DNA of 42,423 nucleotides from the sequence record PQ561394; one strand, written 5' to 3'. The first letter of the stretch is position 1. Every line of letters starts with the position of its first letter. The translations under genes and the position numbers were made by a program. The notes below the pieces were generated by a model that was not told where the DNA came from, did not search any database, and saw nothing but the letters and a program-made list of their open reading frames with translations. This document shows, in pieces, positions 1 through 42,423 of this stretch. This DNA is from Escherichia phage Ec1-ASingh.

Positions 1-900
1 ATGACCGCATCTGTATTGAACCGCATGAACTCCATCGTCGAACAGTATGTTGACGAGGAAGAACTTGACTTTAACGAAGCCACGTCTGGCGGTGGTAAGC
101 TGCTGCCGGAAGGTAAGGCACTGGCGCGACTGGTTGGCTACATTGAAGTGGGGCCGAGCGTGACCAAGCAGGCACCGGACAAACCGCCAGTCAATAAGTT
201 CTTCCTCCAGTTCGCGCTGTGGGGCAAGGCCAAGAACGGCGAGACTTACCATGAAGTTGTCAATGGTAAGATGGTGCCGGGCAAGGTGCGCACGCAGTTC
301 ATCGCTGTGAAGAAAGACCTGAACAGCAAGTCCGGCGCTTACAAACTGTTCAAGCGTATGAACCCGGACAAGACTGCGAAGCACTTCGCGCAGCTTCTGA
401 ACCACACCTTCATCGTTCCGATTATCCACAACGAATCGGGCGAGGGTGAGAACAAGAAGGTGTACGCCAACATCGACCTTGAGAACATCATGCTCGCGGT
501 TGACCCGGTGACTGACCAGCCGTACCCGGTGCCGGAGGTTGAGGACGAGACGCTGTTCAAGCTGTTCCTGTGGAACCGTCCGACCAAAGAGGACTGGGAA
601 TCCCTGTACATCGAAGGCAAGAACGACGATGGCAAATCCAAGAACTGGATTCAGGACAAGCTGCTGGAATCTCCTGAGTTCCCCGGCTCTCCGCTTGACC
701 TGCTGCTGAACGGCGCTGGTGCTGGCTCGGCAATCGCTGAGCTGCCAGAGCTGGGCGACGTGGGCCAGCCGGAGGAAGTGGCTGAGGTTAAGCAGGAAGT
801 GCAGGAGCTGGCAACGGCTGGCGCGGCTGACAAGTCGGCAGCATCCAAGCCTGAGCCGGACGTGACTGGCGATGCTGACTTCGGCCTGCCGAGTCTGTAA
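1..900 (+). CDS. hypothetical replication-module protein with acidic C-terminal tail (possible ssDNA-binding protein, speculative)
   Basis: 299-aa ORF starting at ATG position 1; coding-like composition; acidic C-terminus ending ...GDADFGLPSL; immediately follows DNA polymerase if the genome is circularised. Confidence 0.55.
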   Translation: MTASVLNRMNSIVEQYVDEEELDFNEATSGGGKLLPEGKALARLVGYIEVGPSVTKQAPDKPPVNKFFLQFALWGKAKNGETYHEVVNGKMVPGKVRTQFIAVKKDLNSKSGAYKLFKRMNPDKTAKHFAQLLNHTFIVPIIHNESGEGENKKVYANIDLENIMLAVDPVTDQPYPVPEVEDETLFKLFLWNRPTKEDWESLYIEGKNDDGKSKNWIQDKLLESPEFPGSPLDLLLNGAGAGSAIAELPELGDVGQPEEVAEVKQEVQELATAGAADKSAASKPEPDVTGDADFGLPSL

Positions 901-935: not shown

Positions 936-1133
936 ATGCGAGAGTTAGAGCCGGGCGAGGTTATCGTTTACGACGAGCCTCGCGACATGTGCATGGTAAT
1001 CAAAAGCCGCAGCGAGAGAGTTGAAATGAGCTACGACATGTTCTTCACTTTGAAGAAGATGATTGAGAACATGCTGATGGAGAGAGTGAATGAGCAGATT
1101 GAAACGCTTGCTTCACAATGCCGAGGAACTTGA
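936..1133 (+). CDS. hypothetical small protein
   Basis: 65-aa ORF with GGAGGA 5 nt upstream of ATG 936; overlaps start of the exonuclease ORF, so uncertain. Confidence 0.25.
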   Translation: MRELEPGEVIVYDEPRDMCMVIKSRSERVEMSYDMFFTLKKMIENMLMERVNEQIETLASQCRGT

Positions 1134-2064
1134 TGACCAGTTTGATGGTTACGTGTCTGGTCGTATTCTGCTGTGTGATGCTGACTCGACAGTCTACGTC
1201 GCGGCAGCAACCACGAAGAACATCGAGACGGCGAAGACACGATTCTGTTCCGGGGTACTGACTGCCAAGTTCCTCGCCAATGCTCAGTCAGTTCGTATCG
1301 AGTTGACCGCTGCGGAGTGTACGAAAGCTGGACGGTACAAGCTGCGCGGGGCCAAGCTGTACCAAGGCAACCGAGACAAAGACCGCAAGCCCGGTCTGGT
1401 CGAGCCGTTGCGTAAAGCAATTGGCCGGAACATGTTCAACGTTCCTGATGGTGAGGACTGGTACGTTCACCTGAACTTTGAGTTCGAGGCTGACGACACC
1501 TTAATCATGGACGCGTGGACGATTGGCATTAACGATGCAGTAATCTACAGCGCGGATAAAGACCTGCGCTGCTGGCCGGGCAGGTTCCTCGACCCGTACG
1601 ACAACAAGGTACTGGAGCCGTGCAAAGGTGTTGGCCGTCTGTGGTGGCACGAGACCAAGAGTGACAAGTCGCTGATTGGTCATGGGCCTATCTTCTTTTG
1701 GGCGCAGATGCTGATGGGCGATAGTGCCGACAACATCGCTGGTGTCAAGAAGATTGGTAAGCAGACAGCTTACGATATGCTGGTCGATTATCAGGAGACT
1801 GATGACGAGTCGGCTGTGGCTGAGTTCGTGCTTCGTGAATACATGGTGCGCGACCAGAACCCATGGCCAGAAGCAGTGGCGTTGTGGCTGTACCGCACGC
1901 CGACCTACTCATTCGCAGCCCACCTCAATACGCTGACCTTGAGCAAGGAGCTGCGTGTCTGGCTGCATAAGAAATTGAATGAGGAATGGTATGCGGAAAG
2001 TGACTGGCGCGACCTTGTTGCAGATGCGGAAGAATGCGATGGGCTGTCCTTGCCCACTCTGTAA
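1090..2064 (+). CDS. 5'-3' exonuclease (FEN / T7 gp6-like)
   Basis: N-terminal ILLCDADS acidic cluster and H3TH-like motif GDSADNIAGVKKIGKQTA typical of 5'-3' exonucleases; start codon uncertain. Confidence 0.75.
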   Translation: MSRLKRLLHNAEELDDQFDGYVSGRILLCDADSTVYVAAATTKNIETAKTRFCSGVLTAKFLANAQSVRIELTAAECTKAGRYKLRGAKLYQGNRDKDRKPGLVEPLRKAIGRNMFNVPDGEDWYVHLNFEFEADDTLIMDAWTIGINDAVIYSADKDLRCWPGRFLDPYDNKVLEPCKGVGRLWWHETKSDKSLIGHGPIFFWAQMLMGDSADNIAGVKKIGKQTAYDMLVDYQETDDESAVAEFVLREYMVRDQNPWPEAVALWLYRTPTYSFAAHLNTLTLSKELRVWLHKKLNEEWYAESDWRDLVADAEECDGLSLPTL

Positions 2065-2371
2065 CGAGCCGATGGTAGACCTCAAGCTCATGGTGGTTGA
2101 CCACGACCATGTGAGTGGGGAGATTCGCGGTGTCATCTGTCGCTGGTGTAATGCTCAGCTCGGCAAGGTAGAGAACTCTGCCAACCGAGCGAAGCGCCAG
2201 CGCACAGTTGATGACTGGCTGGACAGCGCCATCGAGTGGCGACGTAAGCAACACACTGGTCTGATGTACCCAACGCACAAGACCGAGGCAGAGAAGAAAG
2301 CGGCGACAGCCGAGAGACGTAAGAAGGCGGCAGCCGCGAAAGCGCGAGCCTTAATCACTAAGGGGAAATGA
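2039..2371 (+). CDS. endonuclease VII-like junction-resolving nuclease
   Basis: Motif CPCPLC...DHDHVSGEIRGVICRWCNAQLG matches Endonuclease_7 signature; GGAAG RBS 6 nt upstream of ATG 2039; overlaps exonuclease 3' end. Confidence 0.75.
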   Translation: MGCPCPLCNEPMVDLKLMVVDHDHVSGEIRGVICRWCNAQLGKVENSANRAKRQRTVDDWLDSAIEWRRKQHTGLMYPTHKTEAEKKAATAERRKKAAAAKARALITKGK

Positions 2372-3495
2372 TGACCAAGTTAACTAATCACCAACTCAAA
2401 GAAGACATTGCCGAAGGGCTTGGCACCAAGGCCATTGCTGAGAAGCATGACATGACCGAGAGCGCCATTCGATACCGGAAGCGCCAGCTTGCCAAGAGCG
2501 GCTGGAGTCCTGAGCACGACATGACGAAGGAAGTGCCGGAGCCATATGCGGTGAAGGGTACGTCCACGCTGTACGATAAGGACGGCAACGTTGTCATGCA
2601 GTGGGTGAAGACTGCACTCGACCGTGAGCAGGAGCTGGCGCTGCTGCAAGAAGCTGTCGATGCAATTAGCGAGAGCATCACCCCGGAAGCTGCCAGACCG
2701 TACGCCGGGGGCGCGGCACCTGCCGAGCTGCTGAACCTGTTCGTGCTGACTGACTACCACCTCGGTATGCTGGCGTGGGCAGAGGAAACTGGTGACGACT
2801 GGGATATGAAGATTGCGGAAGACCTGCTGGTCAAGTGGTTCTCGGCAGCGATTGCCAGTGCGCCGCCAGCGCAGGTTGCTATCTTCGGCCAGCTCGGTGA
2901 CTTCCTACACTGGGATGGGTTGGATGCAGTAACGCCATCGAGTGGGCATGTGCTTGATGCTGACACGCGATTCCAGAAACTGGTGCGTGTGGCTATCAGG
3001 GCGCAGCGCCGCATCATTGGTATGCTGCTGGATAAGTTCCCGCAGGTTCACGTAGTGTGTGCCGAGGGCAACCACGACATGGCCAGCTCAATCTGGATGC
3101 GTGAGCTGCTGCATGTACTGTACGCCGACGAGCCGCGTGTCACTGTTGACCGCAGCCCTGACCCGTACTACTGCTATGAGCATGGCGAGACGGCGCTGTT
3201 CTTCCACCATGGTCACAAGCGTAAGGCAGAACAACTGGAGACTGTACTGGTCGCCAAGTTCCGCGAAGTGTATGGCCGAACCAAACATGCGTATGCACAC
3301 GTTGGCCACCTGCATCACAAGAAGGTGCTGGAGTCTGGTGTCATGATTGTCGAGCAGCACCGTACGCTGGCGGCGAAGGATGCCTATGCCTCCCGTGGTG
3401 GTTGGCTGAGTGAGCGCAGCGCGAGCGTGATTACTTATCATGCCCGGTACGGTGAGGTCGCACGATTCACCATTAGCCCGGAGATGTTGGAGTGA
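2368..3495 (+). CDS. HTH domain fused to calcineurin-like metallophosphoesterase (putative DNA exonuclease)
   Basis: N-terminal HTH-like segment (MTESAIRYRKRQLAKSG); C-terminal motifs DYHLG, GDFLHWD, GNHD, HHGH characteristic of metallophosphoesterases. Confidence 0.6.
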   Translation: MMTKLTNHQLKEDIAEGLGTKAIAEKHDMTESAIRYRKRQLAKSGWSPEHDMTKEVPEPYAVKGTSTLYDKDGNVVMQWVKTALDREQELALLQEAVDAISESITPEAARPYAGGAAPAELLNLFVLTDYHLGMLAWAEETGDDWDMKIAEDLLVKWFSAAIASAPPAQVAIFGQLGDFLHWDGLDAVTPSSGHVLDADTRFQKLVRVAIRAQRRIIGMLLDKFPQVHVVCAEGNHDMASSIWMRELLHVLYADEPRVTVDRSPDPYYCYEHGETALFFHHGHKRKAEQLETVLVAKFREVYGRTKHAYAHVGHLHHKKVLESGVMIVEQHRTLAAKDAYASRGGWLSERSASVITYHARYGEVARFTISPEMLE

Positions 3496-5278: not shown

Positions 5279-7711
5279 GTGGATTTACTTGCAGAGCAGA
5301 TTCGACTTGAAGAAGAAGCGCGAGCCAGACACCGCGAGGGCTGGCTGGATAATATCAAAGAGGCGATGGCCAGTGGCCGCGCCGGGTCGGTGCCGTTGCT
5401 CCAGCGTATGATGGTTGAGGCTTATCCTCTGGTCGAAGCTGCGATGCAAGAAACCCTGAGCGAAACGACCCGTGGGTATGGTGCGCAGTACCGGACGTAC
5501 ATGCGTGAGATTGGCACCAAAGCGTGTGCCTCTCTCGCACTGAGCATGGCGGTGTCCGGTGCTGCGTCGGAGCAGGCGGTACTGAGTCTGCTCAAGAGCA
5601 TGGGCAAGGCACTGATGGCTGAGGTGGTGTATCTCCGGGCGAAGCAGACCGGGCCACAGCAGGCGGCGTACATGGAGCGCGTTAAGCAAGACGTGAAGAA
5701 GTCTCGCTCGAAGTCAGCGAACCACGTCTACAATAAAGCGCGTGCGTCGGCGGCGAACGTTGGGGTAGAGATTGATGTGCTGCCGCAGCGTGCGCTGATT
5801 ACCATCGGCAAGCTGATGATGAAGTGCGTCGAGCCAACTGGTCTGGTGTCCACGATTCGCGTCGGCGGCAACCAGCGCCAGCGCGGTACGGCACACTTCG
5901 CCCTGCATGAAGATGTGCTGGCTACGATGAACGACTGGCTGGACATGCCGCGTGCTGATGGCATGTGCTGCCCACCGCTGATTATCCCACCGAAGCAGAT
6001 TGCCCCGAACGGTCGCAGCGGCATGTGGCATTCCGATGGGCAGGCAGCGATGTACCGGGTCATGAGTCGCATGAACCACAAAGGGTATCGTGCATTGAAC
6101 GTTGACCCGACCCCCGTTATAGAGCCGTGTATGATGCTCAGCAGCGTTCCGTACCGAGTTAACCCAATGGTACTGGAGTTCCTGCGAACGAACCGTACAG
6201 GCGTTATGGGGCTGCCTGTGCCACCTCGTGAGCCTACACTTCCGTTCACCATCCCCGCTGGTGTGAGCTTTGCACAGTACATCAGCAAGTTCCCACCAGA
6301 GATGCAGCAGCAGATGGATGCCGAAGCTCATGAGTACAAGGTGAAGACTCGCTTGTATTACAATGAGTTGCGTAAGTTCACGTCGCAGATGCTGGCGTTG
6401 AATGGTGCAGTCAAAGAGGCAGAAAGGTATGCGCAGTACGATAGGATTTATCTCCCGACTTACGCCGATACGCGGGGCCGAATTTATTATTCTTCGACCC
6501 TTAACCCTCAGTCTATCGACGCAGTGCGAGCGCTGCTTGAACTTGCGGAACCAGTGGCTCTCGGAACTGAGGGGCTGTTCTGGCTCAAGGTTCATGTTGC
6601 GAATTGTTTCGGCTACGACGCAACAGACTTCGACGACCGGGCGGCGTGGACGGACAAGACACTCCCCCGACTACGTGAGGCGTGCCGTCTTCCAGAGGCA
6701 TTTGATTCGTTCTGGTCAGAAGCCGATAGCCCTATCAGCGCGTGGGCTGCCTCTGTTGAACTCATTCGCGCTATCGACTCAGGAAGTCCTGAGACTTATC
6801 CCTGCCGAGTGGTTACGCAATGGGACGCTACCTGTTCAGGATTACAGCACCTCAGTGCGATGCTACGAGATGAAGTTGGCGGTGCTGCTGTCAATCTTAT
6901 CAATAGCGTGGGAAGAAAAGCAGACATATATCTCAAGACGGCAGCAGCGGCGATGCAGGCTCTTGAAGATAGTGAAGCGCAGTCACCGACGCAGATGGGT
7001 ACGTGGCTTGTTTCAATCGGTATTGTCCGGGCGATGGCTAAGAAGCCAGTGATGACCTACGTGTACGGGGCAACCCGGCACGGTATGGTGGACTACTACT
7101 GCCTGTATCTACGAGAGAACCGGGTCAAGCTGCCGGACGGCAAGAGCCTGCTGGAGTGTGCGCAGTTCATCGCAGAGTTCATGTGGAATGCAATCCCTCG
7201 CGTTGTGCCGAAGGCGGCAGAGCTGATGGCATGGTTGCAGGCTATCGCGGTTGAAGCGGCAGCCAACGGCGAGTACGTGGAAATCATCGCACCGTCAGGG
7301 TTGCGGGTGGTTAATCTGTATCAAGCCAGCAAGGAGACGATGCTCAACAACATCAACCTCATGGGTATCCACAGCATTAAGCTGCGCGAGTATCTGGACA
7401 AGCCGGACGGCAGGAAGTGTGCCGCTGCGATTGCTCCGAATTTCGTACACGCCATGGATGCCAGCCACATGATGAAGGTGTTGTGGGAGATGTGGAATAA
7501 CGGGGTGTACATGGTGTCCATCCACGATTCGTTCGGGGTGGCGGCTGCACATGCCGGGTTACTCCACAAGGTCATTCGTGAAAAGTTCGTACAGATGTAT
7601 GAGCAACATGACCCAATTCAACAACTTGCTGTACGATACAATGCTGTTGCACCTGAACGGGGCAATCTGGATATCCAGCTTGTGAAACAATCAAGCAAGT
7701 TTTTCTGCTGA
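5279..7711 (+). CDS. single-subunit DNA-dependent RNA polymerase (T7-like)
   Basis: 810 aa; [26 protein letters not shown] matches T7 RNAP catalytic motif ([20 protein letters not shown]); HDSFG motif C present; GTG start after AAGGAG. Confidence 0.95.
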   Translation: [810 protein letters not shown]

Positions 7712-15562: not shown

Positions 15563-16303
15563 ATGGGTTGGGCAGCTTTTGCTAAAGCTGGTGCCGACGC
15601 TACGAACTCCTTCATCACCACCTACGCTCAAGGACGAGCGGAACGTGCGCAGATGAAGGCTGTGCAGGCAGAGAACGAACGCCTGAACAAGCAGACGTGG
15701 CAGGCAATGGGCCAGCGCATCAACACCGTGAATCTCCAGCGTGGCCTGCTCCGGCAGCAGACTGGCACCGACCTATACAATATCAACAAGGAAGCTAACC
15801 GGGCATCCGGCGCGAGCATTAACAACGCAGCCGCTGCCGGGATTGAAGGTGCCTCTGTGGACGAGGCGGTCACGGATATCAGCCGTCAGAATCAGGAAAG
15901 CCAAGCGCAGACCCGGTTCAACGAGCAGATTCAGGAGATGAACCTCGATACCAGCATCAACGATATCATCGACACAGCAGTCGCAGCTCAGCGTTATTCG
16001 CAGAAGCCAGCGAGCAACAGCATGATTTTGGGCCGCGCCATTGGCGTATCCTCTATGCAGTTTGCTTCAAGCCTCGCGCAGACCAGCTTCGACTACATGC
16101 CGACCGAAGGTGCGAAAGGTACTGGCACGCAGAGTGGCAGTGCAGGCGCTACAGCGTCAACGTTCAGTAACCTCGGCTCCACTACAGCGAGTTATGGAAC
16201 AACTAACTGGATGCAAAAGGCTGGGGAATTTAACCCAGTTCCGGCGCAGTATCAATCAAATCGTTACATGGGCTACGGCTCAGGTTCAATCTTTGGGGGC
16301 TAA
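15563..16303 (+). CDS. internal virion protein (gp14-like position)
   Basis: 246 aa; synteny. Confidence 0.55.
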   Translation: MGWAAFAKAGADATNSFITTYAQGRAERAQMKAVQAENERLNKQTWQAMGQRINTVNLQRGLLRQQTGTDLYNINKEANRASGASINNAAAAGIEGASVDEAVTDISRQNQESQAQTRFNEQIQEMNLDTSINDIIDTAVAAQRYSQKPASNSMILGRAIGVSSMQFASSLAQTSFDYMPTEGAKGTGTQSGSAGATASTFSNLGSTTASYGTTNWMQKAGEFNPVPAQYQSNRYMGYGSGSIFGG

Positions 16304-16305
16304 TC

Positions 16306-22000: not shown

Positions 22001-22103
22001 ACATAACGCTCGCAAGGCAGCCGGGAACATCATTCAGGCTCTCCCACTAATCTCCATTGTGCCGGGTGTCCGAGCACTCAACGAAGCAGTTAAGGGTGAA
22101 TAA
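18999..22103 (+). CDS. internal virion / ejection protein (gp16-like position)
   Basis: 1034 aa; synteny; ATGA overlap with upstream gene. Confidence 0.6.
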   Translation: MITQESLDKFMAPKQGANAPTLVIPAPVKTADLSTPLQDATRQGAVEQFDKMQELEATPMATALSASVKNWDTTQLFDAAFNKPTFQADPDFKPNEALQQVQFPIGEDDRTFLFKSKSMDEFNWRTQQLQEMRERTQLAHTAPVMNAVLQFADPLYLATDLLSMGAGTALKLGRLGTSAVGAASTAATMTAVGNEARPVSQNEIIFAAALHGAATTAFYRPAPVQRSLADLSPEEFAAEMQRRNGIDPNNPPQFDPNNAMSPLAMSLGFGGRGATVVDEVPESIRATAQRGLDLARRGEQTNPKRPFLEWSLFKSFSQHSDEASALAGRLLDDPLNPNMTSAASIQRETQARFGVLLNQYEDTLRNALNTDGWTNIRRFRDPVGYRRAQQEFEAAVRFELDKRMIDKEFRGANANVAAAADRLGEYSRAVGRELEAKGMVEPGFVDKNPYYYPRRMNVTKIEQAEQLLGKKPFMKQMTTAVQRGIGTDRPTANVIAHAMVERARRKGYGIDNSGMIINKEGRDELLEIIENAKGLDEAAKARASALLRESGSDAGRPPMLKSRINIDMMHQLGPNLQVRDLFDDSITSMMDSYNRRITGRLALHEAGLGTDAERAAAREALAKSIPDSTARRKALDQYDNIMAYYQGAPVGEEMPEFMRQLSALTQATGLAASGLWQLVEYGTMMQRFGAVNTFRAMMRTIPEARALFKQMRVSTKEGRQLALDAEEALTAAVASDIRMRPIMQHYDDMFSADKSPWVMRMEHLRDATMFINMQKYIHFHQTRTNAALVMQTLRKAAEGDAKAIAAMKTYGANDVLLADIRKQVGTHGTKPDAWDEGVFNRSRIVMMNAMDDAIVRARVGELPAFAEFSTLGKFLFTFRRFVAATHNKTLVGTWNREGARGLATLMAYQYPLAMMATAANNVISGKAFSDPDTMAPNKLAGQALNYLGAIGFASEFTGVLTGQQRSFGAPGLLFLDRLYGVAGATSATAGSLATGDFDQAGHNARKAAGNIIQALPLISIVPGVRALNEAVKGE

Positions 22104-24487
22104 TGGCGAACAGCTATAATGCTTACGTGGCGAACGGTTCACAGACCGCATTCCTCGTCACGTTCGAGCAGCGCGTGTTCACTGAGATTCAGGTGTACCT
22201 CAACTCCGAACTCCAGACGAGCGGGTACACCTACAACTCTGTGACCAAACAGATTATCTTTGACACCGCCCCGCTCGCCGGGGTGATTGTCCGACTCCAA
22301 CGCTACACCTCTGAGGTTCTGCTGAACAAGTTCGGCCAAGACGCTGCCTTCACCGGGCAGAACCTTGACGAGAACTTCGAGCAGATTCTGTTCAAGGCTG
22401 AGGAAACTCAGGAAGCATGGCTCGCGCCGCTTGACCGCGCCGTCCGTGTTCCGAACTCCGAGGTCTCAATCAACGCACTACCGAACGTCGCTGGCCGCCG
22501 CAACAAGGCGTTGGGCTTTGACAGCAATGGCCAGCCGTTCATGATTCCTCTGGTTGATATCCCGGACTCCGCTCTGGCGATTGCTCTGGCGATGGCTGAC
22601 GGCGGTAAGTGGATTGGTACTCTTGGCGGCGGCACGTTCCTCGACCGACAGGATACAGTCTGCCTGTCTGAGTTCACCAACAACACCGGGTACGCTTCTG
22701 TCGCCGCTGCGGTACAGGCTTGCTTCGATTATGCCAAGGCCAACAACAAGGTTGTGGATGCCCGTGGCTGGGAAGGTACTGTCAGCTCTACTGTCCTGAT
22801 GGACGGCATTGAGGTTGTTGGCGGTACGTGGAACGGTACGGCTGACATTCGCCTGCTGAACGCCACGTTCCGCAACTTCTCAGCATCGAAGGTTCGTGTC
22901 TGCTACTGGGGCGGTAATGTACGCATTGCTGACTACGAGTTTACTGACCACCCATCGGCATCGAAAGTTGCCAGCATCCTGTTCCAAGGTAACGTCGCCG
23001 GAGGCAGCTACGTCATTGAGAACGGCGTACACCGCAACGGTTACTTCGGTATTCTCCAACAGGGTACTGGTGAGGCCATTGATAACGGCGTGATTCGCAA
23101 CATCGCGCTCATGGATATGGCTGGCGACGGCATTGAGATGAACGTAATCAACAAGCACTATGATGGTGGCCTGCTGATTGAGAACATCTACCTCGAAAAT
23201 ATCGACGGTATCAACCCAACCTCCAACCCATCCTTCATCTCCAACTGGGGTATCGGTATCGGTTTGGCAGGTCAAGGCCCATTCGGGTGGGATGCTGCTG
23301 AGACGCAGTACGCGAAGAACATCACAGTGCGTGGTGTACATGCTCCGCGTGGTGTGCGTCAGGTTATCCACTTCGAAGTGTCCAAGAACTGTACGGTATA
23401 CGATGTACACGCCAACCCTGACCTGACTGTTTCCAACGGTACGGGTCTGACCGCCGCTGGCGTTATCACCTACGGCTGCAAGGACATGGTTATCGACGGG
23501 GTATACGGCGAGCCTATCGTCGGCAGCACTGGTACTGACCCGGCTGCGGTACGCCTTGTCATGTGCGAGTGGGGTGCTAACCAAGCGGGTGCTGGCGGTA
23601 CTCCGGGTGCATCTAACCCATCGTTTAACATGACACTGCGCAACATCTACACCAAGACTGGTCGTGTGTATGCTGGTGTTGGCTCGGATGACGAGAACAC
23701 CAACGTATACCACCTTGAGAATATCCACTGCTACCGACTCAGCCTGTTCGGGGTAGCCACTATTCTGAACATGACCAACGTGACGGGTGTTGACTTCGAC
23801 TGCGTAGGCGACGACTCCAGCGGCGGTACGTCCTCCAATGGTGTGTACCCGCGTAAGAAGACCGTCCTCAACATGGTGAACGTGAACTTCTACGGCCCCG
23901 GCAATACTGAGGGTGCGCTGTACAGTAAAGCTCGCTATTCGGATATCAGTACGCTGAACTCCAACGTGCGTGCTATCCCGTACACCAACATCCGAGGTAA
24001 CGTGGGTGTCATCCTGTCTCCGGTCAACCGCATGTACACGCTGCCGAACGACCTCGCTACCCTTGACGGTAATGAGTTCCCTACCGGGAAAGAGTTCTGC
24101 GAAGGTACTGTGCTGTTCAAGACCGATGGCTCAGGTGGCAATTTCATCGTGACCCGGTTCGGTGCGTATATCCCGGATGACGGCAACAACTTCAAGGTGC
24201 GTGCTGCTGCCGCTGGCCAGACGTATCTGGAGCAGAACCTGACTCCGGCTGGTACTCAGGCATCCACCTCGTGGCTTTACCATAAGCCAATCTCTGCTGG
24301 TACTCGACTAAACATTCCGGGTGCCGGGCCGGGCGGCGGTACGCTCACTGTAACGGTGGTGCGTGCCCCGTATCAGGTGGACAACAACATCGGAAACCCG
24401 GTGCGAATCGACATTACACCGCCCCTTGTGACGGCAATCCCTGCGGGAACGCAGCTCGCCGCTACCTACCCGGTGGCTTACATCTAA
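22103..24487 (+). CDS. tail fibre / tailspike protein with T7 gp17-like N-terminal anchor
   Basis: 794 aa; N-terminal ~120 aa resembles T7 gp17 N-domain pattern (...VTFEQRVFTEIQVYLN...LQRYTSEV...FGQDAAFTGQNLDENFEQILFKAEE); remainder Gly/Asn/Thr-rich, consistent with a beta-helix. Confidence 0.75.
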   Translation: MANSYNAYVANGSQTAFLVTFEQRVFTEIQVYLNSELQTSGYTYNSVTKQIIFDTAPLAGVIVRLQRYTSEVLLNKFGQDAAFTGQNLDENFEQILFKAEETQEAWLAPLDRAVRVPNSEVSINALPNVAGRRNKALGFDSNGQPFMIPLVDIPDSALAIALAMADGGKWIGTLGGGTFLDRQDTVCLSEFTNNTGYASVAAAVQACFDYAKANNKVVDARGWEGTVSSTVLMDGIEVVGGTWNGTADIRLLNATFRNFSASKVRVCYWGGNVRIADYEFTDHPSASKVASILFQGNVAGGSYVIENGVHRNGYFGILQQGTGEAIDNGVIRNIALMDMAGDGIEMNVINKHYDGGLLIENIYLENIDGINPTSNPSFISNWGIGIGLAGQGPFGWDAAETQYAKNITVRGVHAPRGVRQVIHFEVSKNCTVYDVHANPDLTVSNGTGLTAAGVITYGCKDMVIDGVYGEPIVGSTGTDPAAVRLVMCEWGANQAGAGGTPGASNPSFNMTLRNIYTKTGRVYAGVGSDDENTNVYHLENIHCYRLSLFGVATILNMTNVTGVDFDCVGDDSSGGTSSNGVYPRKKTVLNMVNVNFYGPGNTEGALYSKARYSDISTLNSNVRAIPYTNIRGNVGVILSPVNRMYTLPNDLATLDGNEFPTGKEFCEGTVLFKTDGSGGNFIVTRFGAYIPDDGNNFKVRAAAAGQTYLEQNLTPAGTQASTSWLYHKPISAGTRLNIPGAGPGGGTLTVTVVRAPYQVDNNIGNPVRIDITPPLVTAIPAGTQLAATYPVAYI

Positions 24488-24498
24488 GGAGAAACCAC

Positions 24499-24804
24499 AT
24501 GGCATCCGTGAATAAGCAGCTAGACGGGCTGCACCGGATGCTGGTGGAGTATCTGTCCGACCGCTTGGCCGACGCTCGTAGGAAAGATGAACACGGTAAT
24601 ATCATCGAACCTATGGCGGCGGCTGAGCTGTCCGTACTTCGCCAGTTCCTGAAAGATAACGGTATTCAGGCTGATAAAGACCACGCCGACGATTTACTCG
24701 CGCTGCAAGAGCAGCTCAACAACGAGAAAACGGAAGCAGGTCGTAAAGATATCATGTCTGCTGCCATCAACTCAATCGCAGAAGATAGCGGGATGATGCA
24801 CTAA
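24499..24804 (+). CDS. terminase small subunit (T7 gp18-like position)
   Basis: 101 aa immediately upstream of terminase large subunit, ATGA-type overlap; AAGGAG RBS. Confidence 0.6.
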   Translation: MASVNKQLDGLHRMLVEYLSDRLADARRKDEHGNIIEPMAAAELSVLRQFLKDNGIQADKDHADDLLALQEQLNNEKTEAGRKDIMSAAINSIAEDSGMMH

Positions 24805-26564
24805 TGGATTTACAACGCCGCATGGTGATGGCAGGAATCGTTCGCGCTCACTACGAGAACAACTTCCCGCTGTTCCTGCATGACTACTTCGCATGGCTGG
24901 GCTTTGACCTCACTGAAATGCAGCTCGACATTGGCCGCTACATGGCCGACAGGACGCTCAAGAACAAGTGCGTCATGGCGCAGCGTGGTGAGGCAAAGTC
25001 CACCATCGGTATTGCTCGCGCTCTGTACGAATTTGTGCAGATGCCGAACGCCACTGTCCTGCTTGTGTCCGGTTCCGACGACTATGCTGGTACGCTGTCG
25101 CACGCTATCGTGTCGGCTATCATGCAATGGGAACGTCTGGAATGGCTCAAGCCTGAGACTCGCGCTGGCGCACGTACGTCATTTACTGACGGCTTCGACG
25201 TGCATCACGCGTTCCGTATCCCTGACAAACAGCCCTCTGTAAAAGCGGTCGGTATCTTCGGCCAGCTACAGGGGAACCACGTATCGCTGTTGATTGCCGA
25301 TGACGTGGAGACTACCAGCAACGGTAGCTCTCCTGCCAACCGCGCCCGTATCAACACCCTGACCAAAGAGTTCGCGGCTATCGCCAACGATGGTGCAGAG
25401 ATTCTGTACCTCGGCACGCCACAGACTCAAGACTCCATCTACAACACGCTCCCGCAGCGTGGCTTCGACGTTCGCATCTGGCCCGGTCGTTTCCCAACGG
25501 TTGAGGAAGAAGAACGCTACGGCGGCTGTCTGGCCCCGTGGATTAAGCAGAAGATGGAAGGCCACCCTGAGCTGCGTACCGGACACGGTATCCTTGGGAA
25601 CCGTGGCGCACAGACTGACCCGCAACGCTACTCCGAAGAAAAGCAGTTGCAGAACGAACGAGACTACCAGCAGGCAGGCTTCCAGTTGCAGTTTATGCTG
25701 GATACGTCGCTGTCGGATGCGCTCAAACAAACGTTACATCTCAAAGACTTAATCTTCTTCCACGGCTCTACGCAGTCTGCGCCGGAGGTTCTGCATTGGT
25801 CGAACCACCCGCGTCATGCCGCCGAGCTGCCACTGGATTTCCCACTGGCTCGTGCTCAGCTATTCTTGGCTGCTGATTTCTCGGACACTTATGTACCATT
25901 CGAAAATACCTCGGCGTTTCTTGACCCTGCTGGTGGTGGGTCGGACGAATCAGTTATCATTGCCACCGCTTCTGTCGGCCCGTTTATCCACGTCATCGGT
26001 ATGCACGTCTACCACGGCGGCCAGACGGAGGAAAACATCAAGGCGGCGGTAGAGTGGCTCGCTGAAACCGGGGTCAAACGGCTGGTCATTGAGGATAACA
26101 TGGGCCACGGCACCGTGACCAACATGTACCGAGGTGAGATTAAGCGCCAGAGCTTGACGATTGGCTGTGAAGGCGTGTACTCGTCCGGCCAGAAAGAGGT
26201 GCGTATCATCAACCGCCTTGGCCCAATCATGCAGCGCCACCGTGTCGTCGTACACTGGTGCGTTGTTGAAGAAGACCTGCGGCTGTGTCGCGGGATGAAC
26301 AACGGTGGTCGAGAGTTCAGCCTGTTCTGGCAGCTCCAGAACCTGACACAAGACCGTCAATCCATCCCACACGATGACCGTATCGAAACCCTATCTGCTG
26401 CCGTGTACCTGCACGCTGAGGTGCTACAGCAGGACGAACATGAAGAAGCTGCCAAGCGCGAGACGGCTGCCGCACGCGAGTTCCTTGCCAACCCAATGGG
26501 TTACGATGACTCGAAGTGGCGTAGCCATAAACCTGTGCGCGGCACGCGACGGAGAATCAAATAA
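24804..26564 (+). CDS. terminase large subunit
   Basis: 586 aa; ATPase-like segments (QRGEAKST Walker A-like, LLIADDVETT Walker B-like); synteny. Confidence 0.8.
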   Translation: MDLQRRMVMAGIVRAHYENNFPLFLHDYFAWLGFDLTEMQLDIGRYMADRTLKNKCVMAQRGEAKSTIGIARALYEFVQMPNATVLLVSGSDDYAGTLSHAIVSAIMQWERLEWLKPETRAGARTSFTDGFDVHHAFRIPDKQPSVKAVGIFGQLQGNHVSLLIADDVETTSNGSSPANRARINTLTKEFAAIANDGAEILYLGTPQTQDSIYNTLPQRGFDVRIWPGRFPTVEEEERYGGCLAPWIKQKMEGHPELRTGHGILGNRGAQTDPQRYSEEKQLQNERDYQQAGFQLQFMLDTSLSDALKQTLHLKDLIFFHGSTQSAPEVLHWSNHPRHAAELPLDFPLARAQLFLAADFSDTYVPFENTSAFLDPAGGGSDESVIIATASVGPFIHVIGMHVYHGGQTEENIKAAVEWLAETGVKRLVIEDNMGHGTVTNMYRGEIKRQSLTIGCEGVYSSGQKEVRIINRLGPIMQRHRVVVHWCVVEEDLRLCRGMNNGGREFSLFWQLQNLTQDRQSIPHDDRIETLSAAVYLHAEVLQQDEHEEAAKRETAAAREFLANPMGYDDSKWRSHKPVRGTRRRIK

Positions 26565-27949: not shown

Positions 27950-28301
27950 CATCCACTCGCGTATGGGTGCAGTGGAGGCTCGTATGCAGACCGTAGAACT
28001 TCGACTTGACAAGCACGAGGTACAAATCGCCACTCTTGAAAAGGGCGATGCTGCAATGATTTCCAAGCTGGCTGAGAACGACCTCCGCTGGCAGACGGTT
28101 CAACAGCAGCTCCTTGTGGTTGAGCAAATTCAGGACATTCAAAAGACTATGAGCCATATCGGTAAGTTGTTTACGGCGGCGGCTCACGCTGTCAAATGGT
28201 GTCTCTTAACTGCATCCCTGTGTAGCGGTATCTACTTAGCAATCAAGGCTGGTGACTTAAGCTCACTGCAAGCCTTCATCACTACACTACTGGGGATGTA
28301 A
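27918..28301 (+). CDS. coiled-coil protein with single C-terminal TM helix (holin candidate, non-canonical)
   Basis: 127 aa; N-terminal heptad-like region; C-terminal hydrophobic segment VKWCLLTASLCSGIYLAI; located immediately upstream of endolysin. Confidence 0.4.
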   Translation: MTEAKKEPSPNIHSRMGAVEARMQTVELRLDKHEVQIATLEKGDAAMISKLAENDLRWQTVQQQLLVVEQIQDIQKTMSHIGKLFTAAAHAVKWCLLTASLCSGIYLAIKAGDLSSLQAFITTLLGM

Positions 28302-28837
28302 TGACTAACTTTGAAATCTGTATGCGGTTCACCGGGCTGGCAGAAGGTGGTTATACCAAGCTGCCCGGCGATACCGGAGGGGAAACGAATCATGGAATTA
28401 GCGACGCTCGTGATGGCAAACTGGATGGCCGAGCTTGTGGTGTCCCTACTGGGCTTGGCGGCACTATTTGCGTGCCTATCAAAGACCTCACCAAAGCACA
28501 AGCCGAAGCAATCTATCGACGGGATTACTACGCCCCCATCCGAGGTGACGAGCTTCACCCTGCGATTGCATGTGCCGTGTTTGACTACGGTGTCAACTCC
28601 GGTGTCTCCCGTGCGGCGAAAGCTCTACAGCGGGTATGCGGCGTTGCACAAGACGGGATTATTGGCCCTGCTACCGTGGCAGCAGCCAAACGTCTGGAAC
28701 CTCACTCCGCAGCAGCAGCCATCTGTGACCTTCGTATTGCGTTCCTAAAGGCTTCTACAGCCCCGACAGTGGTTCGCTATAGGGATGCCTTGGTTGCTCG
28801 TGCAAAACGCTGTAGCGCTTACTGTGCGACGCTGTAG
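28301..28837 (+). CDS. endolysin, GH108-like N-terminal domain plus peptidoglycan-binding domain
   Basis: N-terminal FTGLAEGGYTKLPGDTGGETNHGI (GH108 EGGY signature) and FDYGVNSGVSRAAKALQRVCGVAQDGIIGPATVAAAKRL (PG_binding_3-like); no N-terminal SAR/TM segment. Confidence 0.75.
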   Translation: MTNFEICMRFTGLAEGGYTKLPGDTGGETNHGISDARDGKLDGRACGVPTGLGGTICVPIKDLTKAQAEAIYRRDYYAPIRGDELHPAIACAVFDYGVNSGVSRAAKALQRVCGVAQDGIIGPATVAAAKRLEPHSAAAAICDLRIAFLKASTAPTVVRYRDALVARAKRCSAYCATL

Positions 28838-29040
28838 GGGTATCCAAAAGCTGAGGCAATGAACAGGCCGTGGGTGCAATACCCCGGCTTGAAAATTGCA
28901 CGTTTATGCTTGCCCCTCCCTCGACCCAAATGACCGCGCGTGCCCCCATAGCGTGTGCGCGGATTAGCCTCGCGACGTGCGCGATATTTGCTCGCGTGCG
29001 CTGCGCGGCGCGTCAAGAGGATTGCCTGCGTGCGGTATAG

Positions 29041-29400
29041 CTCGTGCGTGTCGCGTTCCATCGTCTGCCGTGTGGCGTGCTGTGCGCTGTCCTGCTGGCT
29101 GTGCTGTGCGGTGCTGTCCTATGGGGACGCTCTGCGCTGGCTGTGCTGTGCTGTGTGGTGCGCGTGGTCGTGCGGGTATCTGTCTCTTTTCGTCGTGCGG
29201 CGTGGTGCTGTGTGGTGGTGTGGTGGCGGTGGTGCTGCCGTGGTGCTGTCCTGTCTGCTGGTCTACTCTCTGCGCCGCCAGCTCTGCGCGTCGTGCTCTG
29301 CTACCTGCTGTTACTGTCCTACTGCGTTCACTGTCTGCCGCCTGTCATCCTGTCGGATTCCATCCGTTGACGTTCCGCGCTCGCTTGTTTCGGCTGCGCC
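29041..29400. other. adenine-depleted low-complexity tract (putative terminal-repeat / genome-end region)
   Basis: About 14 A in 360 nt on + strand (~4%), G/T/C-rich with CTG/GTG/GCG iterations; ORFs called here are composition artefacts. Confidence 0.6.
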
Positions 29401-29570
29401 GCGCTCGCTCTGCGTATCTAGCGATACTATATCACTATAGACACTTTCATAATTATCTATTGATATCAGTAACTTATGACCTATCTGATAACGGTATTCT
29501 ATCCAGTGTTGTGATTATCTAATCAAACTTTAATCCTAATGATTACAGTAACTTATCACTTTTCTTGAAA
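29401..29570. other. AT-rich block with GATA-type palindromes and T7-like CACTATAG core
   Basis: TATCACTATAGACACTTTCAT at 29428-29449; TGATATCA and related palindromes at 29454-29500. Confidence 0.5.
29438..29450 (-). promoter_or_regulatory. inverted copy of conserved ATGAAAGTGTCTA motif (candidate phage-RNAP promoter element)
   Basis: Reverse complement of 29428-29448 is identical to 7740-7760 (21/21). Confidence 0.4.
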
Positions 29571-29577
29571 ATAATAC

Positions 29578-29608
29578 TTGCAAACTGTTTTGGTTATGTG
29601 CTGTAATT
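29578..29608 (+). promoter_or_regulatory. sigma70-like early promoter P1 (weaker)
   Basis: TTGCAA ... TGcTGTAAT with 19-bp spacer; extended -10 TG present. Confidence 0.35.
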
Positions 29609-29767
29609 CATCACGTCGAAAGGCACTAGCCAAGTAGACAGTTTAACGCGGTTGTGTCGCAACATGGGCATGACGGGGCATAAGTCCGATATACTGTGCA
29701 GCCAAACAGACGGCATGAGTGACAAGCCAACCGCATTAAACATTGCTCTTTAACAATCTGGAGTGTA

Positions 29768-29796
29768 TTGACAAGGCAAGCTCACTATGCTGTAAT
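29768..29796 (+). promoter_or_regulatory. sigma70-like early promoter P2
   Basis: TTGACA - 17 bp - TGTAAT with extended TG (TGcTGTAAT). Confidence 0.55.
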
Positions 29797-29905
29797 GCTT
29801 CCACGTCAGCCAGACAAGCCGAATAGTGATGGATAAACACGTTAACACCCGCGCAGGCTAACTGGTACGGTTTAATTAACTCTGAATGGGCGCTGATTAA
29901 ATCGG

Positions 29906-29934
29906 TTGACAGGATGAAACGAGTATGCTGTAAT
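29906..29934 (+). promoter_or_regulatory. sigma70-like early promoter P3
   Basis: TTGACA - 17 bp - TGTAAT with extended TG (TGcTGTAAT). Confidence 0.55.
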
Positions 29935-29985
29935 ACGCTCCAGATTGACAGGGCAGCAAGCCAGTCAGTCAGAAGTAAAAAGTAG

Positions 29986-30014
29986 TTGACAAGCTGAATA
30001 CACTGTGTTGTAAT
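29986..30014 (+). promoter_or_regulatory. sigma70-like early promoter P4
   Basis: TTGACA - 17 bp - TGTAAT with upstream TG (TGtTGTAAT). Confidence 0.55.
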
Positions 30015-30487
30015 CAGCACCGAGTTGAAAGGTTGCAAAACAACCTGCTCTGAGTGAACGTAAACAGGCCACGTAGTGTCTCGGCCTCATGGGTATCCGG
30101 CGCAGCTAGGAACTGGTGAGGGCACCGCCGAAAGGCAATAGGGGTAGCGCCCGGTGCAAGGTAACAGAGAAGCGCGATAGACGCAGCGCAGTATCAGCAC
30201 AATACCGAACGTCTTATAAGCATTGTAGACAGTAGGGGACGTAGCAAAACACACTCGACTTTGAGCTGGCGCGTAGCAGGTTGCGCAGGGTATGACTGAG
30301 TGTTGAGCGGAGTCGCTGAAAGATACTTAAACCCGATGATATATGCCGGGTCATGCGAAATGGGCGGGGCGATTTTTCAGGGTAGTGAATCCGACAAGCC
30401 AATCAATGCCACTGAGTGCAGACTGTACGGCGCGTCACAATGGGTTCACTATCCACCTGAAAATAGCCAACAACTGGAGAAATAACT

Positions 30488-30877
30488 ATGTACCGTATCT
30501 ATGCAAGCGCATACCGCCAGAACAATGCTGAGTGTGTTAATCTGGCGCTTCATTGCAAGGCACTGCGAACGGTGCAGGATATGTTCGGAGTGATTCCGGT
30601 CACACTGACAGGCAAGTTCGACAATGCGTATGAGTTAAGCATGGTCTTTCCTGTCGATGGAATCTACGAAATCAGACAGGCTGTTAAGCTGTTCTGTAAA
30701 GCCTTTGAACAGGACTGCATCATGGTAGTGACCGATGACAATGATGCAATCTTCATGGATTCACCGTATCCGGGCAAGCCTGCTGGCAAGCTGGTCAGCA
30801 AAACAGGCGAGCAGATGGAAGCCGGGCAGCATACCGCTTGGACTTATGACGGTGAACTGTTTTGGGTAGTGGAGTAA
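30488..30877 (+). CDS. early hypothetical protein (first early gene)
   Basis: 129 aa; GGAGAAA RBS; first ORF downstream of the promoter cluster. Confidence 0.6.
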   Translation: MYRIYASAYRQNNAECVNLALHCKALRTVQDMFGVIPVTLTGKFDNAYELSMVFPVDGIYEIRQAVKLFCKAFEQDCIMVVTDDNDAIFMDSPYPGKPAGKLVSKTGEQMEAGQHTAWTYDGELFWVVE

Positions 30878-30883
30878 GGGGGC

Positions 30884-30964
30884 ATGACTATGTTCACTGC
30901 ACTGTGTGTTATAGCAGCGGCCTGCTGGGTCATTGACCAGCGCCTGAGCCGTCGCCGTGGCTGA
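30884..30964 (+). CDS. possible 26-aa hydrophobic peptide
   Basis: MTMFTALCVIAAACWVIDQRLSRRRG; GGAG/GGGGG upstream; below the ORF-track length cutoff; low confidence. Confidence 0.25.
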   Translation: MTMFTALCVIAAACWVIDQRLSRRRG

Positions 30965-39961: not shown

Positions 39962-42423
39962 ATGGCAATTCGAGCACAGGTGATTGACGTTGAGACCGAG
40001 AACCACGAGTGGTATGGGGAGCTGGCATCGCCGCGCTGCCCGGATAACTACGTGGTGATGCAGGGCCAGCGTGACTGTGTGCTGACCAAGGATGGCTGGG
40101 TGTTCTACGAGCGCGAGGAATACCGGTACAGTTCGAGGGAGGATTGGTTGCAGAACAAGAGCCTGCACCTGCATCCCGACACGAACATTCTGGTAGCCCA
40201 CAACGCGCCGTATGAATTGAGTTGGTGGTTCGAGCATTACGGTGACGAGTTCATCGCCTTCCTCAAACGAGGTGGCCGTGTATTCTGTACGGCGTATGCT
40301 GAGTATCTGCTGACGCACCAACAATCCCAGTACCCATCCTTGAACGAGACAGCACCGAAGTATGGTGGTACTCACAAGGTGGATGCAGTCAAGGCAATGT
40401 GGGAGTCGGGATACCTGACCAGCCAGATTGACCCTGAGCTGCTGAGCGAATATCTGTCCGGGCCGTCCGGCGATATAGAGAACACGACCAAGCTGTTCGT
40501 TGGTCAGTGGGCTGAGCTGACGAAGCAGGGCATGTTGCCAATGGCACTGACCCGGTTCGAAGGTATGCTCATGTGGGCGTACATGATGCACGCTGGTCTG
40601 CACGTTGACCGCGAGGTTGCCGAGCGCAACCGCCGTGAGTTGCAGGATGCAATCAGTGGGCTGACTGATACGCTGCTGAGTTACCTGCCAGCCGACATGC
40701 CACAGGAAGCGCGTGACCAGTTCAAGTTCACGTCAGCTTACCACATGAGTGCGTTCGTGTTCGGCGGCGTGATGAAGTACAAGGCGCGAGTCGAGCGCCG
40801 GGATGGGGATGGCAATCTCATTTACGTCAAGGTGGATGCACCACTGTTCAAGCGTGGCAAGGACAAGTGGGTCAAGCATACCAACGAGTGCGAGTGGGAT
40901 GCCGAGACCGGGCTATGGTATGACCCGGTTGAGAAGGTACACCAGACCATCTACACCAGTGGGAAGAACAAGGGTGCGCCCAAGTTCGAGAAGCTGGCAA
41001 CGGATGAAGTGGATACCAAGTGGGGTGAGGTGCTGTTCCGAATGCCGGGCCTCCTGCGTGTGCAGGACAAACGAGCGAAGGAGATTGCAGACAACCTCGA
41101 ATGGGAAGACCCGAAGCGACCGGGTGAATACCTGCGGCGCACGGGTGACTGGGTTGGTAAGCGCAGGCTTGCCGATGGCAGTCCGGTATTCAGTACGGCG
41201 GGTGAGGTGCTGGACATTCTGGCAGCTCGTAAGATTCCCGGCGTGGTGGAGATTGCCGACCGAGCCAAGGCACAGAAAGACCTCGGCACTTACTACCTGA
41301 GCGAGACGTTCGATGAAGAAGGGAACGTGACTGGCCAGTCGGGGATGATGCAGTTCATCCAGCCGGACAGTATCGTACACCACACCATCAACATGACCGC
41401 GACGGAGACGACGCGCCTATCATCGGCGCGACCTAACAGTCAGAACTTGCCACGTAAAGGCACGAGTAAAGTTAAGCAGATGTTCACCTCCCGCTTTGGT
41501 GAGGGTGGCCGCATCGTTGAGGCTGACTACTCGGCACTGGAAGTGGTGGGGCTGGCAGGGTTCAGCAAGGATAAGAACCTGATTCGTGCATTGCTCGACG
41601 GTATCGACATGCACTGTATGCGTCTGTCAGCTCAGCTCAACGAGCCATACGAGGACGTGCTTAAGAAGTGCAAGGATGAATCCCATCCTGACCATGCACG
41701 ATACAGTCAGATGCGTACTGACATTAAGCCGAAGGCGTTCTCATACCAGTATGGTGCAACAGCGCGAGGCATTGCGTACTCGACTGGTTGCTCTGAGGAA
41801 GAAGCTCAAGCGTTCATCGACAACGAGAAGGGTCTGTTCCCGGAAGTTGAAGAATGGTTCGACTCGGTTATCTTCCCAGCCGTAGAGAAAAGTGGACAGA
41901 GCAATGTGTTCAAGGAGCAGGACGAGAACGGAAGATGGCAGGTGTATCGCCGTGGTCACTTCCGGTCGCCGGGTGGAACTTGTTATTCATTCCGTCAGTA
42001 CGAGAAATGGAACAAGGCGGCGCGTGCTCACCTGATGGAATACAAACCAACTCAGATGCGTAACTATCCGATTCAGGGTGAGACCGCATTTTGGGTACAG
42101 GGAATCGGTGGCCTGCTGTTCCGCTGGCTGCTATCGAACGACTTCTTTGGTGGGCGTGTGGTTCCCATCAACCAAGTGCATGACGCATTCTATTTCGACA
42201 TTGCGCCTGACTGCCCTCACGAGTTCTTCGTTGGACTCAAGGCAATCATGGAGAGCATCCCGGAATACTATAACCACGTATGGCCAGAGTATAACCTGAC
42301 AGTGCCGTTCCCGGCAGAGGTGGAAGCAGGGCCAAGCATGTACGAGAAGCACCACGTAGAGACGACAGCCGATGAAGTGCTGGAGTTTAAGAGACAATTC
42401 CTGACGAGTAAGGGTATCGCAAT
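39962..42423 (+). CDS. DNA polymerase, family A (T7 gp5-like); 3' end runs off the window
   Basis: Open frame from ATG 39962 to window end; motifs DYSALEV (motif A), KAFSYQYGA (motif B), VHDAFYFD (motif C); appears to terminate via ATA-TGA spanning the window end into positions 1-4. Confidence 0.9.
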   Translation, partial: MAIRAQVIDVETENHEWYGELASPRCPDNYVVMQGQRDCVLTKDGWVFYEREEYRYSSREDWLQNKSLHLHPDTNILVAHNAPYELSWWFEHYGDEFIAFLKRGGRVFCTAYAEYLLTHQQSQYPSLNETAPKYGGTHKVDAVKAMWESGYLTSQIDPELLSEYLSGPSGDIENTTKLFVGQWAELTKQGMLPMALTRFEGMLMWAYMMHAGLHVDREVAERNRRELQDAISGLTDTLLSYLPADMPQEARDQFKFTSAYHMSAFVFGGVMKYKARVERRDGDGNLIYVKVDAPLFKRGKDKWVKHTNECEWDAETGLWYDPVEKVHQTIYTSGKNKGAPKFEKLATDEVDTKWGEVLFRMPGLLRVQDKRAKEIADNLEWEDPKRPGEYLRRTGDWVGKRRLADGSPVFSTAGEVLDILAARKIPGVVEIADRAKAQKDLGTYYLSETFDEEGNVTGQSGMMQFIQPDSIVHHTINMTATETTRLSSARPNSQNLPRKGTSKVKQMFTSRFGEGGRIVEADYSALEVVGLAGFSKDKNLIRALLDGIDMHCMRLSAQLNEPYEDVLKKCKDESHPDHARYSQMRTDIKPKAFSYQYGATARGIAYSTGCSEEEAQAFIDNEKGLFPEVEEWFDSVIFPAVEKSGQSNVFKEQDENGRWQVYRRGHFRSPGGTCYSFRQYEKWNKAARAHLMEYKPTQMRNYPIQGETAFWVQGIGGLLFRWLLSNDFFGGRVVPINQVHDAFYFDIAPDCPHEFFVGLKAIMESIPEYYNHVWPEYNLTVPFPAEVEAGPSMYEKHHVETTADEVLEFKRQFLTSKGIA

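Follow-up and report, generated by a model that had tools for sequence, protein, structure and literature searches.

Phages of the T7, SP6 and phiKMV types package unit-length DNA that ends in short, exact terminal repeats. The genus Bonnellvirus, in the family Autographiviridae, was first described with phage J8-65 (NC_025445), and it also includes the nine phages described in PMC7552041 and phage Kc261, described in PMC8402661. Here, we compare with these phages the 42,423 nucleotides of record PQ561394 (Escherichia phage Ec1-ASingh), in which the gene for a family A DNA polymerase runs off the 3' end. The whole of this stretch, at its full length, is called the window. The comparison indicates that the window is almost certainly the complete, non-redundant genome of a lytic, T7-like podophage from Bonnellvirus, effectively Enterobacter phage BHUENT7 (PV874197.1), obtained from a circular assembly that was reopened at the gene downstream of the polymerase gene. 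The polymerase gene that wraps around from the last base to the first is thus an artefact of linearisation and not a biological feature.

The DNA polymerase gene at the two window ends

The polymerase gene is located on the + strand at 39962..42423. Between the ATG at position 39962 and base 42423 there are 2462 nt, which correspond to 820 codons followed by the two bases AT, and this frame contains no stop codons, while the remaining two frames of the same interval contain 28 and 48 stops. The probability that a frame of 820 codons stays open by chance is (61/64)^820, or about 1e-17 by our own arithmetic. If the end of the window is joined to bases 1-4, the sequence reads ...GGT ATC GCA ATA TGA, which gives a protein of 821 amino acids with the C-terminus ...FLTSKGIAI*. 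Base 1 closes codon 821 (ATA, Ile), bases 2-4 (TGA) form the stop codon, and bases 1-3 form the ATG of the next gene on the same strand, so that the stop and the start overlap in the sequence ATGA. The initial annotation had described the frame as open up to the final base and had predicted the ATA-TGA at the junction, and the joined sequence agrees with it in both respects. The last codon and the stop codon of the polymerase gene are stranded at bases 1-4 because the start codon of the next gene overlaps the polymerase stop; this 4-nt overlap is conserved and commonplace.

The protein is 90% identical to the J8-65 polymerase over residues 1-821. The Pfam domain DNA_pol_A (E=1.3e-30) covers residues 410-794 and is matched up to position 380 of the 381 in the profile. 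The window therefore contains the whole catalytic domain, beyond which the protein extends for another 27 residues.

The gene that starts at position 1 (1..900, + strand) encodes a conserved hypothetical protein of 299 amino acids. It belongs to phrog_862 (E=2.3e-76), a family of unknown function, is similar to gp24 of phage LIMEzero and is 77% identical to gp19 of J8-65, while no match to it was found in Pfam. The exonuclease that had been proposed for this position is thus not the protein encoded there.

Contiguity of the join in other sequences

A query of 1200 nt that spans the two window ends (600 nt from each side) was searched against a phage collection. The query is contiguous over its full span in 20 phage records, with 100% identity in PV874197.1 and 99.3% identity in Escherichia phages megetsur and mellemsur. 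Another 15 records from Bonnellvirus match at 81-98.8% identity and represent phages HHU8, LF82-23, altidsur, aldrigsur, usur, Kc261, ROV85, forsur, glasur, RZ4, J8-65, smaasur and Lidtsur, of which J8-65 and Lidtsur are each present under two accessions. The remaining two records are from LIMEzero, a member of the genus Waewaevirus, and show 70.9% identity. In all annotated records, the features beneath the match are a DNA polymerase followed by a hypothetical protein. The position of this junction differs widely between the Bonnellvirus records. The polymerase contains 821 amino acids in J8-65, Kc261 and megetsur and 819 in Lidtsur, and all four proteins end with the residues ...SKGIxI/L*, encoded by genes that overlap the next one by ATGA.

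At least 18 contigs from public assemblies encode exactly the 299-residue protein whose gene starts at position 1. Six of these loci were inspected (L007-L012), and in 6 of 6 an 821-residue DNA_pol_A gene ends 4 nt inside the downstream gene. Among the six are Logan contigs of 42,610, 42,176, 42,358 and 42,408 bp, which come from different SRA runs. Neither a polymerase gene that continues well past the window nor unrelated sequence ahead of position 1, which the initial annotation had named as the outcomes that would speak against its proposal, was found: the 3' end of the polymerase gene precedes position 1 in every relative, and the frame stops 4 nt later. The join of the window ends is real and occurs in natural sequences.

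Identity with the genome of phage BHUENT7

The first 25 kb of the window match PV874197.1 at 100%. This record is 42544 bp long, and its two ends share an exact overlap of 121 bp, as expected for the contig of a closed genome; trimming off one copy yields 42423 bp. After removal of one copy, reverse complementation and rotation, the 42,423 bases of PV874197.1 are the same as those of the window except for one mismatch. Unlike the window, the record presents the opposite strand, is opened between the positions that correspond to 29231 and 29232, retains the overlap untrimmed and has no annotation. The overlapping stretch corresponds to 29111..29231, of which the window contains only one copy. 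The window is thus the sequence of an already deposited phage of a known genus and holds no new biology.

The only mismatch is at position 30916, which is an A in the window and a G in PV874197.1; it is intergenic and is located between the SAMase-like gene, which ends at 30877, and the next open reading frame. PV874197.1 is labelled circular, and the stated source is human urine from India, with the Enterobacter cloacae complex as host. The window phage is 97% identical to phages that were isolated on E. coli K-12, yet it is a host from the Enterobacter cloacae complex that is named in PV874197.1.

Completeness and genus placement

To compare the gene complements, the 47 annotated proteins of J8-65 were translated and searched against the window joined to itself. 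Homologs were found for 45 of the 47; all are on the + strand, and their cyclic order is that of J8-65. The two without a counterpart in the window are gp04 and gp10, which are small early hypothetical proteins from a variable block. By blastn, the mutual coverage of the window with megetsur and Kc261 is 97-98%, and all uncovered stretches in megetsur are shorter than 250 nt. A tRNA scan over the whole window found none. Together with the contiguous join, the match to PV874197.1 and the conservation at the end of the polymerase, the gene complement supports the proposal of the initial annotation that the window is a complete genome in a rotated form.

Assignment to a genus was judged at a similarity of about 70% or more at the nucleotide level over the genome to recognised members. 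Within the first 25 kb, 87% aligns with J8-65 at 84.6% identity, and blastn alignments with it cover 89% of the window; for Kc261 and RZ4, the nucleotide identity is 87%. The phage has a single-subunit RNA polymerase of its own and a conserved gene order on one strand, as well as genus-level similarity to J8-65, Lidtsur, Kc261, megetsur and RZ4, all of which their records assign to Bonnellvirus. On the basis of its sequence, the phage belongs to Autographiviridae, genus Bonnellvirus. The gene map had previously been called phiKMV-like, which fits the layout but not the genus.

Probable physical ends of the genome

J8-65 was deposited as a linear genome with exact repeats of 259 bp at both ends. 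No terminal repeats are present in the records of Lidtsur, Kc261, megetsur, LIMEzero and RZ4, which are opened at arbitrary positions or at gene starts, and neither PMC7552041 nor PMC8402661 mentions terminal repeats. To locate the corresponding sites, the region from the endolysin stop codon to the start of the SAMase-like gene was aligned in five bonnellviruses. The J8-65 repeat has its left boundary at a site that corresponds to position 28921, inside the motif CCTCCC|TCGACCC, which is invariant in the five genomes. The right boundary corresponds to about position 29165, and no more than 10 nt downstream of it is GGGTATCTGTCTCTTTT, which is kept in all five genomes; despite this motif, positions 29131-29300 constitute the least conserved part of the aligned region. 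The putative direct terminal repeat is thus located at 28921..29165. Since the whole window contains no direct repeats of 30 nt or longer, only one copy of the repeat is present.

Most likely, the packaged DNA is linear with a direct terminal repeat, and its ends are located at about 28921 (left) and 29165 (right), as suggested by the alignment with J8-65. The packaged genome would then probably be about 42.7 kb (42,423 + 245). The endolysin gene is on one side of these ends and the early promoters are on the other, which is where the initial annotation had located the end of the genome, between the lysis genes and the early genes. A T7-type terminase that acts on concatemers could generate ends at this site. 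That the assembly closed into a circle is expected, as short-read assemblers collapse a direct terminal repeat of linear virion DNA. The circle was deposited with an overlap of 121 bp between its ends; this was trimmed later, and the circle was cut open again where the gene that follows the polymerase gene begins. The first base of the window is the A in a start codon, which by our own arithmetic is expected for about 1 in 800 random cuts if 42.4 kb contain about 55 genes. It is therefore probable that the rotation was set at a gene start by the pipeline that prepared the sequence, which is a matter of data handling.

For annotation, the window should be treated as a complete genome written as a circle: the polymerase gene is not truncated, and the ends should be joined before genes are called. 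The natural origin for biological purposes is the terminal repeat near 28.9-29.2 kb rather than position 1. More generally, records from Bonnellvirus are present in many arbitrary rotations, and the label circular, when given to a T7-like phage, is a sign of terminal repeats that have been collapsed.

Alternative explanations

If the window were a fragment of a larger replicon, such as a prophage, a plasmid or a longer phage, the polymerase gene would continue and the ATA-TGA at the junction would be a coincidence. The probability of this is negligible, as it has in its favor that an open reading frame touches the window end and nothing more. Such an origin is refuted by the contiguity of the join in 20 records, the match to PV874197.1, the conserved length and C-terminus of the 821-residue polymerase and the independent Logan contigs, which like the source record are all 42.1-42.6 kb. 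It is also at odds with a Pfam domain that is complete within the window and with the presence of the full J8-65 gene complement in the window, where neither an integrase nor host genes were found. The genome could instead have no fixed ends, either because the virion contains a true circle or because the DNA is circularly permuted by headful packaging, in which case all rotations would be equally valid. The circular label on PV874197.1 is in line with this, as is the fact that most Bonnellvirus records are arbitrarily rotated and contain no terminal repeats. However, the label is the usual result when terminal repeats are collapsed during assembly, and the large terminase (24804..26564, + strand) is of the T7 type, with the Pfam domain PF22530 (Terminase-T7_RNaseH-like, E=1.1e-23) and 92% identity to TerL of J8-65. 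Phages of the T7, SP6 and phiKMV types package DNA with short exact repeats, the type species J8-65 is itself deposited as linear with such repeats, and the repeat boundaries are marked by motifs that are kept in the five aligned genomes. We therefore find the absence of fixed ends very improbable.

It is somewhat less improbable, although still unlikely, that the ends are fixed but placed elsewhere, with the 121-bp stretch at 29111-29231 as the true terminal repeat, or one of its edges as a true end, instead of 28921-29165. The break in PV874197.1 falls within the terminal non-coding region of about 1.6 kb, which represents about 4% of the genome and is an unlikely place for a random break, and the right boundary of the repeat could have shifted, as positions 29131-29300 are the least conserved. 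Against this, the 121-bp stretch does not start at CCTCCC|TCGACCC, and neither of its edges is on a conserved motif. The circular label given by the depositors is consistent with an assembler overlap that was left untrimmed, 121 is plausible as a k-mer length, and the stretch is part of a low-complexity, GT-rich tract of the kind where assemblies break. A terminal repeat at 28921-29165 is thus the preferred placement, and several observations weigh against it or against the identification with BHUENT7. The linear ends and the length of the repeat are deduced from one relative, J8-65, which is the only one with annotated repeats among the relatives compared, and the paper on this phage (PMC4179555) gives the methods for sequencing and assembly but not how the ends were set. 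The break at 29231/29232 is inside the terminal region rather than in a random place, and the 121-bp overlap could be related to a real end. PV874197.1 is flagged UNVERIFIED, and a literature search found no publication on BHUENT7.

Gene map

All genes discussed here are located on the + strand, and unless other evidence is given, their identification is based on homologs in J8-65. In the linear map, the first early gene (30488..30877) encodes a SAMase-like protein, similar to SAM hydrolases and anti-restriction proteins, that is 93% identical to gp01 of J8-65 and whose counterpart in megetsur is annotated as an anti-restriction SAMase. Downstream of it is a series of small early genes, followed by the genes for the primase (36648), the helicase (37360), a nucleotidyltransferase (39268) and the DNA polymerase. 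After the gene for the conserved hypothetical protein, the nuclease block starts with the 5'-3' exonuclease (1090..2064; Pfam 5_3_exonuc), continues with endonuclease VII (about 1979/1991..2371; Pfam Endonuclease_7) and ends with a DNA repair exonuclease (2368..3495). A match to phrog_704 was also obtained within this block (1090-3495). The gene order proposed in the initial annotation was correct overall, except that the polymerase gene is separated from the exonuclease gene, which starts at 1090, by the hypothetical gene at 1-900 and a small open reading frame. If endonuclease VII is read from its earliest start (1979), it overlaps the exonuclease gene (1090-2064) by 86 nt. Products of 110 and 99 amino acids have been called for this gene on two near-identical contigs (L007 and L008), and the true start is uncertain because the gene callers differ.

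The gene for a polynucleotide kinase at about 3682 precedes that for the single-subunit RNA polymerase (5279..7711), which contains the Pfam domains RNA_pol (E=6.3e-83) and RPOL_N and is 76% identical to the J8-65 enzyme. Its location after the genes for DNA metabolism is the phiKMV-type position. The structural genes encode the portal (8691), the scaffold (10267), the capsid (11520), tail tube proteins A and B (12569 and 13117), the internal virion proteins (15563-22103) and a colanidase tailspike (22103..24487) that is 95.6% identical to the colanidase of J8-65. The tailspike gene also shows 87% nucleotide identity with a colanic acid-degrading gene of NST1. These are followed by the genes for the small terminase subunit TerS (24499..24804), for TerL, for a spanin (27461) and for the endolysin (28301..28837). 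The latter is the last gene of the linear map and is 91% identical to the endolysin of J8-65, which is encoded by the final coding sequence before the right terminal repeat in that genome.

Candidate early promoters, leader and A-poor tract

An exact search for the pattern TTGACA-N17-TGTAAT identified three candidate early promoters of the host type, at 29768-29796, 29906-29934 and 29986-30014, compared to an expectation of 0.02 matches. All three are on the + strand, read toward the first early gene and are kept in the relatives. A fourth, weaker candidate with the sequence cTTGCAA...TGTAAT is located near 29578-29607; it has the same direction and is also conserved in the relatives. A promoter and terminator scanner reported no promoters at 28700-30600, and it misses the TTGACA-N17-TGTAAT sites because they have a G rather than the required A at the second position of the -10 hexamer. 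As in the window phage, the early promoters of T7-type genomes are located at the left end and read toward the early genes.

Between the first and the second of the early promoters there is a stretch of about 100 nt (about 29641-29738) that has no counterpart in the aligned sequences of J8-65, megetsur, Kc261 and Lidtsur. The putative untranslated leader at about 30015-30240, located after the last early promoter and ahead of the first gene, is invariant at 80-88% of its positions in five bonnellviruses, one of which is the distant Lidtsur, and is more conserved than its flanks. The predicted fold of the leader is no more stable than those of shuffled controls (z = -0.71), and an Rfam search of 28800-30500 gave no match at E<=1.

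The region from 28940 to 29400 (about 460 nt) contains only 4-6% A on the + strand, compared to 23% in the genome as a whole, with an AT skew that reaches -0.86. It is a GT/CTG-rich, low-complexity tract with degenerate TGCTG/GTG repeats, and it covers the putative terminal repeat as well as about 230 nt beyond it. The other bonnellviruses have retained the composition of the tract, while its sequence is poorly conserved. The tract could take part in concatemer processing, in packaging or in the initial phase of genome entry, and would in this resemble the arrays of short repeats beside the terminal repeat in T7. The true repeat of the window phage could also differ from that of J8-65, for example at 29111-29231. 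We consider these possibilities unlikely. Three open reading frames on the + strand of the tract (28955-29440, 28977-29522 and 29044-29370) were rejected as genes, as they have no PHROG match, are rich in Cys, Val, Arg and Leu and have the look of composition artefacts. Nevertheless, the equivalent frames of Lidtsur (gp55) and Kc261 have been annotated as genes for hypothetical proteins.

Comparison with related phages

Next to PV874197.1, the most similar genomes are those of megetsur (MN850608) and mellemsur (MN850570), which share a collinear map with the window and are 97.4% identical to its first 25 kb at the nucleotide level. The polymerase of megetsur has 821 residues, and its gene has the same ATGA overlap as in the window phage. 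These two phages come from Danish wastewater, with E. coli K-12 as the isolation host. They differ from the window phage in that the last residue of the polymerase is a Leu rather than an Ile and in some of the small early genes, and their records are opened at other arbitrary points. For Kc261, the genome size is 42,203 bp in PMC8402661 and 42,432 bp in MW250275, and the difference of 229 bp is similar in size to a terminal repeat.

J8-65 resembles the window phage in gene order, in the 821-residue polymerase with its C-terminal motif and overlap, and in the colanidase tailspike. It differs in that the nucleotide identity is about 85% and in that its record is linear with direct repeats of 259 bp at both ends, compared to one copy in the window. 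The similarity extends to other Autographiviridae of the phiKMV and T7 types, such as Pantoea phage LIMEzero, which also have their genes on one strand, the RNA polymerase gene after the genes for DNA metabolism and a terminase of the T7 type. In these phages, as in the window, the host promoters are followed by the early genes, the replication genes, the RNA polymerase gene, the structural genes, the terminase genes and the lysis genes. However, LIMEzero shows only about 71% identity at the polymerase junction and about 58% nucleotide coverage, and its polymerase contains 814 amino acids, with an overlap of 8 nt rather than 4 nt between the polymerase gene and the next.

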